Source: a virus (Duplodnaviria; Heunggongvirae; Uroviricota; Caudoviricetes). Taken from it: a stretch of 64,000 nt of DNA. Below, one piece after another: positions 2,385 through 61,422 of this stretch (the first letter of the stretch is position 1; each line of letters starts with the position of its first letter). A program made the translations under genes and the position numbers. The notes beneath the pieces were generated by a model. The model was not told the DNA's origin, did not search any database, and saw only the letters and a program-made list of their open reading frames with translations. Where the stretch lies: the IMG/VR virus record IMGVR_UViG_2718218172_000010, one strand, 5' to 3'.

Positions 2385-2557
2385 ATAATTCTCTTCTTGG
2401 TTACTAAGTGAATTTTGTGATGCGGTGCCTGGTGCCTCCAGGTGACTGCAACCAGTTAACAATTACAGTCGGCTTTCCCACCCAAACCAATAAGGACTAA
2501 CATGACTTTTAACTGTGCCGCGTGCGCTTAGCCGCATTCACCGCATCACAAAATTCA

Positions 2558-2640
2558 CTTTAAAAAGGGCGGACATCAGCCGAACTTCAAGAAAAAACTG
2601 ATGCCGCCAAGACTACACACAGCAATGTCGTTATTTACAA
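2558..2640 (-). ncRNA. dicF: DicF-like sRNA candidate with 3' terminator hairpin
   Basis: Minus strand reads ...GGCGGCAUCAGUUUUUUCUUGAAGUUCGGCUGAUGUCCGCCCUUUUUAAAGUGAAUUUUGUGAUG...; hairpin 2569-2608 then U-run; resembles recalled DicF 3' region; lies in the leftward early operon. Confidence 0.4.
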
Positions 2641-2806
2641 CCGGAGGCGCACTCCCACCATTTAAATTTAACAGACAAAACCGACTCTTTATGGATATCG
2701 GAAATGCGCCTTCGTGTTGCGCCCGGTTTTATTTCACCACCTCCGGGCTTTGGTGGCCTCGGCTATACCCCTACAGCGAGAATATTGAATTAATCCAAAT
2801 AATGGA

Positions 2807-2959: not shown

Positions 2960-3340
2960 TTTGGAAACCCTCACATCTTGTTGTTGCGGATAGAGGCTTC
3001 TGCCTGCCAGAGATCCCAGTCGTTGCTGCGTAGAGCCTGTACAGCCTGGCTGTAAGTGATGTCGTAACAATCCATCAAATACTGAACTACTTCGTAATGC
3101 ACCATTTTATCTCTCCCTTTAACGCCGGGTGGCGGAACTAAAACCTACAGCGCCGTGCTGCTTCTGCAATAATATTAGTTATATTCATATAAGTGATCAA
3201 CACAAATATGCATTTTATTGATAAAAATGTACTATCGTAATGAAATTTTTAGTGTTTTTTTTGATAAAAAAGAAAGGTGAGGGTGCAGAGGGGACAAAAA
3301 AACCGCCAAAAATGGCGGTTTAGTTACGAGGTTACGGGAG

Positions 3341-3805
3341 CTATTTCTTCATGCGTTTCTGAGCTGCCAGCATCTTTTCAAACGCTTCTTTGTAGAGTTC
3401 ATTCTGACCTTTAAGCCTTTCGATTAGTTTTGCTTTTTCTGATTCGGGTAGGATTTCAAAAAGATCCAGTAAATCAGCTTGTTGCTTGTTAACCATCCGC
3501 CAACCTTCGCCTTCGAAACTTTCGTCATAAGTTCCTGAGGAACGGACGTAATTCATCAGATCAGCTAAATCAGGCCTCAACTCTTCAGGCTTAACTCTTA
3601 GTAATACAGCGAATTTTAATGCTGCATCAGTGTTTAGTGGAGCCTTTCCGTTGAGATAGTGGCTAACTGTGGATTGAGTCTCAAAGCCCATTAGCTCAGC
3701 AGCAAGCTCCTGAGTCAGTTTGAGCTCTCTTTTTTTGGCATCCCAGACTGCGCGCAGACGCTGCGTAGCTTCTGGCGATGCGATTTCTTCGCGTTTTCTT
3801 CTCAT
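3341..3805 (-). CDS. prophage repressor, HTH XRE-type (RacR/cI-like)
   Basis: 154 aa with helix-turn-helix LTQELAAELMGFETQSTVSHYLNGK; divergent from Cro-like gene. Confidence 0.7.
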   Translation of the reverse strand: MRRKREEIASPEATQRLRAVWDAKKRELKLTQELAAELMGFETQSTVSHYLNGKAPLNTDAALKFAVLLRVKPEELRPDLADLMNYVRSSGTYDESFEGEGWRMVNKQQADLLDLFEILPESEKAKLIERLKGQNELYKEAFEKMLAAQKRMKK

Positions 3806-9669: not shown

Positions 9670-9880
9670 AAACGGTTTGCGGGAAAAGGAGAGTTAAGTA
9701 GAATTGCTGCGGGTGCTTGAGGCTATCTGCCTCAGGCATGAACACCAAAAGGCAGATAGAGAAAAGCCCCAGTTAACATTACGCGTCCTGCAAGACGCTT
9801 AACATTAATCTGAGGCCCAATCTATGTCTCACAAATGTAGGTTAGCCTCTTACGTGCCGAAAGGCAAGGAGAAGCAGGCT

Positions 9881-10036
9881 ATGAAGCAGCAAAAGGCGAT
9901 GTTAATCGCCCTGATCGTCATCTGTTTAACCGTCATAGTGACGGCACTGGTAACGAGGAAAGACCTCTGCGAGGTACGAATCCGAACCGGCCAGACGGAG
10001 GTCGCTGTCTTCACAGCTTACGAACCTGAGGAGTAA
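9881..10036 (+). CDS. hokD: Hok-family type I toxin (HokD/RelF-like, 51 aa), with overlapping mok-like frame from 9824
   Basis: MKQQKAMLIALIVICLTVIVTALVTRKDLCEVRIRTGQTEVAVFTAYEPEE; upstream fold-back elements resemble the plasmid hok locus at 61123-61422. Confidence 0.75.
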   Translation: MKQQKAMLIALIVICLTVIVTALVTRKDLCEVRIRTGQTEVAVFTAYEPEE

Positions 10037-35044: not shown

Positions 35045-35380
35045 AGTAACCTCTTTTGGCTTTTTTCGAATTGCCACTAACGTAGTGGCGCCGGGAGGTT
35101 CGAAACGGCCCAAAAGATACCGCGGACTTATTCCCCTTTCGGGTGTTGTATTCGTCGCCCTCCCGACATTGATCGGGGTTGTGATCGCACATATTGCCAT
35201 CACAAAAAAAGGCATAAAAAAACCAACACATTGTAGGGTGCTGGGTAATCAGCTTTTGGGGGAGGTTTCGACGCCTCATGCGTCCAATCATACTCAACTG
35301 GGCGCGGTTGTAAAGTATGAACTTGAACAGACATTAAGAATGGGTAAAATTTGTCCTCCTGTTTTATAAGGAGATTAAGG

Positions 35381-60989: not shown

Positions 60990-61263
60990 TGCGGCAACAA
61001 TCATACAGATTACCCGTAAACAGCCTGAATGAGCGGGTTATTTTCAGGAAAAGTGAGTGTGGTCAGCGTGCAGGGATATGGGCTATGATGTGCCCGGCGC
61101 TTGAGGCTTTCTGCCTCATGACGTGAAGGTGGTTTGTTGCCGTGTTGTGTGGCAGAAGGACAAAAGCCCCGTAGTTAATTTTTCATTAACCCACGAGGCC
61201 CCTGCATGCTTAGACAACATCAGGATAGCCTCTTACCGCGCTTTGCGCAAGGAGAAGAAGGCC

Positions 61264-61422
61264 ATGAAACTACCACGCAGCTCTCTTGTCTGGTGTGTGT
61301 TGATCGTGTGTCTCACACTGTTGATATTCACTTATCTGACACGAAAATCGCTGTGCGAGATTCGTTACAGAGACGGATACAGGGAGGTGGCGGCTTTCAT
61401 GGCTTACGAATCCGGTAAGTAG
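61264..61422 (+). CDS. hok: Hok toxin (52 aa) with overlapping mok-like frame from 61123
   Basis: [52 protein letters not shown]. Confidence 0.85.

Follow-up and report, generated by a model that had tools for sequence, protein, structure and literature searches.

DicF, the small RNA (sRNA) of the Qin prophage, pairs with different messages through its two ends, the 3' region binding the ribosome-binding site of ftsZ and the 5' end pairing with xylR (mSystems 2016). In Qin the terminator equivalent to the one described below is read through for dicB, and processing by RNase III yields the 72-nt DicF. A second prophage sRNA, KilS (b4833), is annotated as an ncRNA in the Escherichia coli K-12 MG1655 record, where it directly precedes kilR within the Rac prophage. 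It was predicted from RIL-seq data and then verified by Northern blotting by Bar et al. in 2021 (Front Microbiol, PMC8175672), with a band in the K-12 wild type, none in an hfq deletion, and accumulation in stationary phase. The same study mapped the transcription start to the 5' end of the RNA (1418502) and an RNase E site to 1418471, at about nt 32 and just 5' of the segment that we refer to below as the seed (PMC8175672). KilS was classed there as a 5'-UTR-derived RNA with only three RIL-seq interactions, of which that with yncL is reproducible; csgD was not reported among them and DicF is not mentioned in the paper (PMC8175672).

Two further RNAs are relevant to the comparison. The first, RprA, is a core-genome sRNA under Rcs control. 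The segment nt 60-77 of RprA, known as anti-site Ib, pairs with csgD, as was proven by compensatory mutations (CAGC, -87 to -90), and it is included in the ydaM-pairing region of RprA (nt 45-75), while the processing product RprA60-105 begins exactly at this segment (PMC3465796). There are three RprA sites on csgD, and a lesion in any one of them leaves repression in place, while lesions in any two relieve it (Mika et al., PMC3465796). Among the RprA targets common to RIL-seq and TRIC-seq is yncL. STnc100, finally, has been described as a prophage marker.

Here we examine a minus-strand locus in a stretch of 64,000 nucleotides (referred to as the window) from a virus of the class Caudoviricetes, IMG/VR record IMGVR_UViG_2718218172_000010, for which a DicF-like sRNA had been proposed. 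We find it very likely that 2562-2658 (-) is an allele of KilS, that is, an Hfq-dependent sRNA in the 5' leader of a Rac-type kil slot and a paralogue of DicF. The flagged sRNA is already known under that name and there is nothing new in the finding as first stated; its main value is for annotation, where the transfer of function from 'DicF-like' to ftsZ would be wrong for KilS.

Layout of the locus

The elements of the locus follow one another on the minus strand. The most upstream is a ydaF-like gene with a DUF1391 domain (2807-2959), identified from Pfam (E 3e-29) and from the annotations at related loci, which is a synteny anchor in common with ydfA of Qin. About 150 nt of promoter and upstream spacer (2659-2806) separate it from the 97-nt sRNA (2562-2658), which ends in a G+C-rich intrinsic terminator hairpin of the form GGCGGCAUCAG-loop-CUGAUGUCCGCC (2568-2608), a module in common with DicF, and a U5 tract (UUUUU, 2562-2566). 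A structured, STnc100-like leader of 185 nt (2381-2565) extends from the sRNA terminator to the next gene, a 90-aa ORF of unassigned function (2112-2384) that matches phrog_7311 (E 8.5e-18) and, weakly, DUF5983_N. The original prediction described a minus-strand sequence resembling the DicF 3' region with a terminator hairpin and U-tract, and in this it was right, its hairpin (2569-2608) falling one nucleotide short of ours. The box that it drew around the sRNA (2463-2806) does hold the RNA and is too wide, since 2463-2561 belongs to the leader and 2659-2806 to the promoter and spacer.

The surrounding genes of the window include those for a RacR-like HTH repressor (3341-3805) and YdaS-like, DUF1482 and YdaE-like proteins, and judged by their sequences they confirm a Rac-type early region. 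Strain cq9 has an identical locus, together with recE, recT, ralR and xisR, and in its annotation the 90-aa ORF is the hypothetical protein WP_001156286.1; identical loci also occur in pig ETEC-type strains (complete E. coli genomes searched by megablast with 2380-2830). Relatives of 95-97% identity have kilR in the kil slot, annotated directly after ydaF, where the window has the 90-aa phrog_7311 ORF. What is the slot of an FtsZ inhibitor, held by kilR in most Rac-type relatives, is taken in the window by an unrelated protein-coding sequence.

Right after the RacR-like repressor gene there is a terminator-like hairpin, AAACCGCCA-UUUU-UGGCGGUUU, followed by a U-run (3300-3321, minus strand), which suggests something other than simple co-transcription of the ydaG, ydaF and sRNA genes with that of the repressor.

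Extent of the resemblance to DicF

The region 2567-2621 (-) matches the Rfam model of DicF (RF00039) over all 52 model positions, with a score of 41.1 bits and an E-value of 1.5e-7 in the 651-nt stretch searched, which becomes approximately 1.5e-5 when scaled by arithmetic to the whole 64-kb window. This match was seen only in E-value mode and lies below the gathering score of the family (48 bits), so that the RNA does not qualify as DicF at that threshold; DicF was absent from the scan of the whole window at Rfam gathering thresholds, which returned only two sok matches and sRNA-Xcc1. As controls for the same model, DicF of K-12 scored 76.7 bits, a chimera from O157 54.7 bits, a copy from E. 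albertii 43.5 bits and KilS of K-12 39.1 bits.

Direct alignment of K-12 dicF with the window RNA identifies what the two have in common, namely the lower 5' stem UGGCGG.AUCAGUUUU, including the first residues of the loop, the 3' stem CCGCCCUUUUU and the U-tract. The approximately 170 nt downstream of the terminator are near-identical at the two loci, and the stem base GGCGG/CCGCC with its U-tract is common to all ten family members aligned. The RNA 2562-2658 has a predicted fold of -31.6 kcal/mol (z = -2.5 against dinucleotide shuffles). The resemblance to DicF is therefore genuine and far beyond chance, and it is limited to the terminator module. Both of the computational checks proposed with the original prediction, alignment to dicF and a covariance-model search, detect a relationship, the first as a shared terminator module and the second as a sub-threshold score.

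A search of the window allowing up to three mismatches found no second copy of this family. Two other Rfam matches in the flagged region, to CRISPR-DR17 (E 3.5) and SpF10 (E 3.9), were discarded as chance.

Identity as KilS

When 2562-2658 (-) is aligned with kilS of K-12 (NC_000913.3, 1418405-1418502), the two sequences correspond from end to end, with 95 of the 97 window positions identical, as expected of full-length orthologues. They differ by a C>U substitution (GUAGUCCU in K-12, GUAGUCUU here) and by one loop U fewer in the window RNA. The setting is likewise that of KilS, the RNA lying downstream of ydaF and within the kil-slot leader of a Rac-type prophage, with the qualification that the gene downstream is here not kilR. 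Common to both loci are the promoter region, where a single position differs, the terminator, the upstream ydaF and the downstream structured leader, whereas K-12 has kilR downstream and a sieB insertion between ydaF and the sRNA, both of which are missing from the window.

Of 5426 complete E. coli genomes, 1763 have KilS-type sequences, with about 1850 copies between them. Such sequences are also present in five of the nine matching phage records, including that of phage Rac-SA53, and in Shigella and E. ruysiae. KilS carries an annotation in the record of K-12 MG1655 and none in any of the 30 RefSeq records among the matches listed.

Putative promoter and proposed mode of action

The sequence TGTTAAATT at 2665-2673 (-) was read by eye as a putative extended -10 element, 7 nt upstream of G2658, the position that would correspond to the K-12 start at 1418502. 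A scan for consensus -35/-10 promoters made no call at this element, for which the -35 is poor, and gave a single weak site at 2826-2799, inside ydaF, with a total number of sites not above that in shuffled sequence. Repressor control of the RNA, as originally suggested, finds no support here: for the K-12 orthologue a start of its own has been mapped, and the RNA builds up in lysogens that are in stationary phase and uninduced (PMC8175672).

Expression, Hfq dependence and chimeras with yncL are known for the K-12 orthologue and may also apply to the window allele. We propose that transcription would begin at about G2658 from the extended -10 promoter and that most transcripts would end at the terminator (2568-2608) and its U5 tract, giving an RNA of about 97 nt, in which the 3' hairpin and U-tail would form the usual Hfq-binding module. 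Given the RNase E site at about nt 32 in K-12, just 5' of the seed, a shorter form beginning with the seed is likely to be made as well. The seed (2609-2626), single-stranded beside the terminator, would then pair with mRNAs bearing motifs similar to ACUACACACAGCA, and its identity to RprA would imply that some of the targets which RprA regulates through this site, such as the csgD leader, are shared. Transcripts reading through the terminator would continue into the structured leader and the next gene, and in this way the terminator may also serve as an attenuator in cis.

A seed shared with RprA

The seed AUUGCUGUGUGUAGUCUU is identical at 18 of 18 nt to nt 60-77 of K-12 rprA, that is, to anti-site Ib, and this exact match is the only one in the window. 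The substitution of GUAGUCCU by GUAGUCUU is what lengthens the identity, from 16 nt in K-12 to 18 nt here. We put the chance that an exact word of 16 to 18 nt is shared with any known sRNA, taking these as about 10 kb in total, at 2e-4 to 1e-5. What is shared is a seed and not membership of the family: against the whole RprA model (RF00034) the RNA scores 29.8 bits, with a gathering score of 70 and an E-value of 0.21, and only the 18-nt block aligns confidently.

The two RNAs are alike in the immediate setting of the seed, with AACGA before it and the terminator hairpin immediately after it in both, in having a processing site just 5' of it (giving RprA60-105 in one case, the RNase E site at about nt 32 of K-12 KilS in the other), and in that yncL has been reported as a partner of each. 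They differ in that there is no similarity outside the seed block, the terminator and promoter are different and KilS is prophage-borne. KilS also lacks counterparts of RprA nt 28-45, the partner of csgD site II, and of nt 33-52, by which RprA binds the rpoS leader, and activation of rpoS is not predicted for it.

Pairing energies, here and for ftsZ below, were calculated from windowed duplexes with opening (accessibility) terms; full-length RNAduplex runs, with shuffled sequences as the comparison, were dropped for both ftsZ and yncL, as they gave long global duplexes with z near 0. The seed (nt 32-49 of the RNA) provides the best predicted pairing with yncL, both in the 5' UTR (-38 to -16) and just past the stop codon, each with a hybridisation energy of -18.7 kcal/mol. 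With csgD it forms 13 perfect base pairs at -99 to -85 (hybridisation -22.5 kcal/mol), and this duplex is the same for RprA, the window RNA and K-12 KilS. The predicted fold leaves the seed partly paired to a 5' segment, and the predicted costs of opening it are 8.4 kcal/mol in K-12 KilS, 5.7 kcal/mol in the window RNA, where the substitution noted above lowers it, and 3.3 kcal/mol in RprA; the total energies for csgD are -12.4, -15.1 and -17.5 kcal/mol, respectively. KilS has only one of the three csgD sites of RprA, and binding to csgD may therefore not suffice for repression.

We tentatively put forward the idea that KilS, and with it the window allele, may imitate one of the seeds of RprA from within a prophage, which we regard as a serious possibility that falls somewhat short of probable. 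If it is correct, Rac-type prophages could reach that branch of the RprA regulon to which csgD, ydaM (dgcM) and yncL belong and which covers the control of curli and biofilm; alternatively, KilS could be a competitor of RprA, both for these target sites and for Hfq. RprA is controlled by the Rcs envelope-stress signal, and neither effect would depend on that signal. About a third of complete E. coli genomes have this prophage RNA, in which a targeting site validated in RprA is copied exactly, and this offers a concrete and testable example of a mobile element tapping into an sRNA regulon of its host, here one that controls curli and biofilm. In the literature searched we found no paper that names KilS and RprA together, nor any report of the identity between their seeds.

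The downstream leader and probable attenuation in cis

The leader at 2381-2565 is strongly structured, with a predicted fold of -68.5 kcal/mol (z = -5.4) in which 2539-2560 and 2406-2427 are the two arms of a closing 22-bp helix. Its conservation extends over three different downstream genes, namely dicB in Qin, kilR in Rac and the 90-aa ORF in the window, and among 12 unique leaders compensatory changes occur in 3 of 44 consensus pairs. The full STnc100 model (RF02076) matches at 2381-2565 with 38 bits, below the 47 bits needed for assignment to that family, and equivalent leaders at other loci score 34-42 bits. The likeness to STnc100/PasD thus consists of a full-model match and the hairpin CACCUGGAGGCACCAGGCACC within the leader; the difference, apart from the sub-threshold score, is that the matching sequence here is an mRNA leader adjoining the flagged sRNA and not the sRNA itself. 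The 3' end of a 72-nt DicF would fall inside the 22-bp helix, and the leader probably corresponds to the place at which RNase III is described as processing the dicB operon transcript.

It is probable that the terminator also limits read-through into the downstream gene, and one may ask whether this is all that it does, the region being a cis-acting attenuator that shields a downstream and often toxic gene, with the short RNA as a by-product without consequential targets in trans. Such an explanation would account for the pattern of conservation in the family, in which seeds and loops are variable and the constant parts are the stem base of the terminator and the leader after it, and for the strong structure of that leader. 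It is also in keeping with the classification of KilS as 5'-UTR-derived with three interactions only (Bar et al., PMC8175672), and with Qin, where read-through of the terminator for dicB and RNase III processing to the 72-nt DicF are described. Set against it are the Hfq-dependent accumulation and yncL chimeras of the K-12 orthologue, an identity of 16 to 18 nt with a functional RprA seed that would seldom arise by chance, and the core GCUGUGUGUAGU, which is kept in six of the seven KilS-type variants compared. We consider a role in attenuation alone unlikely; attenuation as such is compatible with the KilS-allele explanation, which we continue to favour.

Pairing with ftsZ

A further explanation is the one originally advanced, in which the RNA is a functional DicF that blocks translation of ftsZ by antisense pairing and inhibits cell division on prophage induction. 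It draws on the full-length, though sub-threshold, match to RF00039, on the homologous position with a terminator and leader in common with Qin dicF, and on the presence of division inhibitors (kilR, dicB) as neighbours in relatives. The score of 41.1 bits is nevertheless well below that of true DicF, the protein division inhibitor kilR is itself replaced in the window, and the RNA is without the xylR-type 5' seed of DicF (UUUCUGGUGACG).

The residues of DicF that pair with ftsZ lie in its 3' region, in the loop and 3' arm ACUCCGUGACUGCUCUGCC, and in the family alignment this sequence is replaced by UUUUUUCUUGAAGUUCGGCUGAUGUCC in the window RNA, which thus has no 3' region complementary to the ftsZ ribosome-binding site. 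Our calculations recover the known site of DicF (nt 32-53 with ftsZ -28 to -7) at a hybridisation energy of -22.7 kcal/mol and a total of -7.9 kcal/mol, and the O157 chimera served as a second positive control, its pairing with the same ribosome-binding site being recovered with totals of -5.7 and -5.5 kcal/mol. The best ftsZ pairing of the window RNA reaches only -11.6 kcal/mol in hybridisation and -2.9 kcal/mol in total, and the residues that it engages, nt 13-21, lie buried within the 5' helix of the RNA's own predicted fold. The loop of K-12 KilS, GUUUUUUCUU, offers a weak pairing with the ribosome-binding site sequence GGAGAGAAAC that might be cited in favour of an ftsZ role (hybridisation -9.5 kcal/mol), yet its total is approximately -0.5 kcal/mol. 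With a different seed and a different loop, no repression of ftsZ is to be expected from the window RNA, and as modelled here an ftsZ-targeting, division-inhibiting role is not supported; we regard a functional DicF as very improbable. That the region codes for a small protein instead, such as the 69-aa plus-strand ORF 2601-2810 in the mechanical ORF list, can be practically dismissed, as this ORF is unannotated at the identical cq9 locus, runs antisense to and overlaps the terminator, and has its 3' part (~2790-2810) in sequence that the sieB insertion replaces in K-12 Rac, where the RNA part is near-identical.

KilS and DicF as positional paralogues

For KilS, the preferred identity of the window RNA, there remains the relationship to DicF. 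An exact search with the terminator/leader junction, using one genome per species, gave 13 loci, and the family comparison consists of these and four E. coli variants. Two 5' types can be distinguished, a DicF type in which the hairpin is preceded by ...UUAUCAAUUUUCUGGUGACGUU and a KilS type in which it is preceded by GUGGGAGUGCGCCUCCGGUUGUAAAUAACGACAUUGCUGUGUGUAGUC; the KilS-type 5' region aligns with the sequence upstream of the DicF 5' end, and loops and upper stems are swapped between the types. The position of the window RNA, between ydfABC-type genes and a small gene in the place of a toxic one, with the terminator and conserved leader, is that of DicF. In more general terms KilS and DicF of Qin have in common the slot between the DUF1391 gene (ydfA/ydaF) and a small toxic gene, the stem base GGCGG/CCGCC with its U-tract, a structured, STnc100-like leader of about 170 nt, and Hfq binding (reported for DicF and for K-12 KilS). 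The differences lie in the 5' seed and the hairpin loop, and in the origin of the 5' end, which in DicF is made by RNase E from an operon transcript while KilS has its own transcription start.

As slot, terminator and leader are the same and seeds and loops are exchanged, KilS and DicF are, on comparison of their sequences, positional paralogues on a constant terminator and leader. The claim of a DicF homologue in the leftward early operon can be kept to the extent that there is an sRNA gene, related to dicF and in the equivalent slot of an early region of lambdoid/Rac type; it cannot be extended to the DicF seed and ftsZ-pairing sequence, which are absent. If the relationship is as we describe, the DicF/KilS family would be a constant chassis of terminator plus leader that recombination fits with different seeds and loops, and its mosaic variants would show how prophage RNAs gain targets by module exchange. 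This modular architecture was not found in the literature searched.

Mosaic forms were seen among the variants. In E. coli O157:H7 SS TX 313-1 (L020, 745-795) a KilS-type 5' half with an RprA-like seed is fused, within the hairpin, to the DicF-type, ftsZ-pairing loop UUCUACUCCGUGGCUGC; at 54.7 bits this chimera is above the Rfam threshold for DicF, and some EHEC copies of 'DicF' may in consequence carry both seeds. The E. albertii copy (43.5 bits) combines a DicF 5' part with a KilS-type stem. In two relatives (L020, 1022-1210, and L008, 3236-3424) isrK and C4 antisense RNA elements, each scoring above its gathering threshold, take the place of the genes that follow the sRNA and leader; these elements adjoin a Rha-family regulator and have no counterpart in the window.

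Other RNA elements in the window

Elsewhere in the window a full-length match to the Rfam family sRNA-Xcc1 is found at 35082-35167 (-), with 72.5 bits against a gathering score of 53. The sok antitoxin RNA is matched at full length twice, at 9711-9886 (+) with 121.7 bits and at 61095-61266 (+) with 92.6 bits (gathering score 59), which implies that the window holds two type I toxin-antitoxin loci of the hok/sok type.
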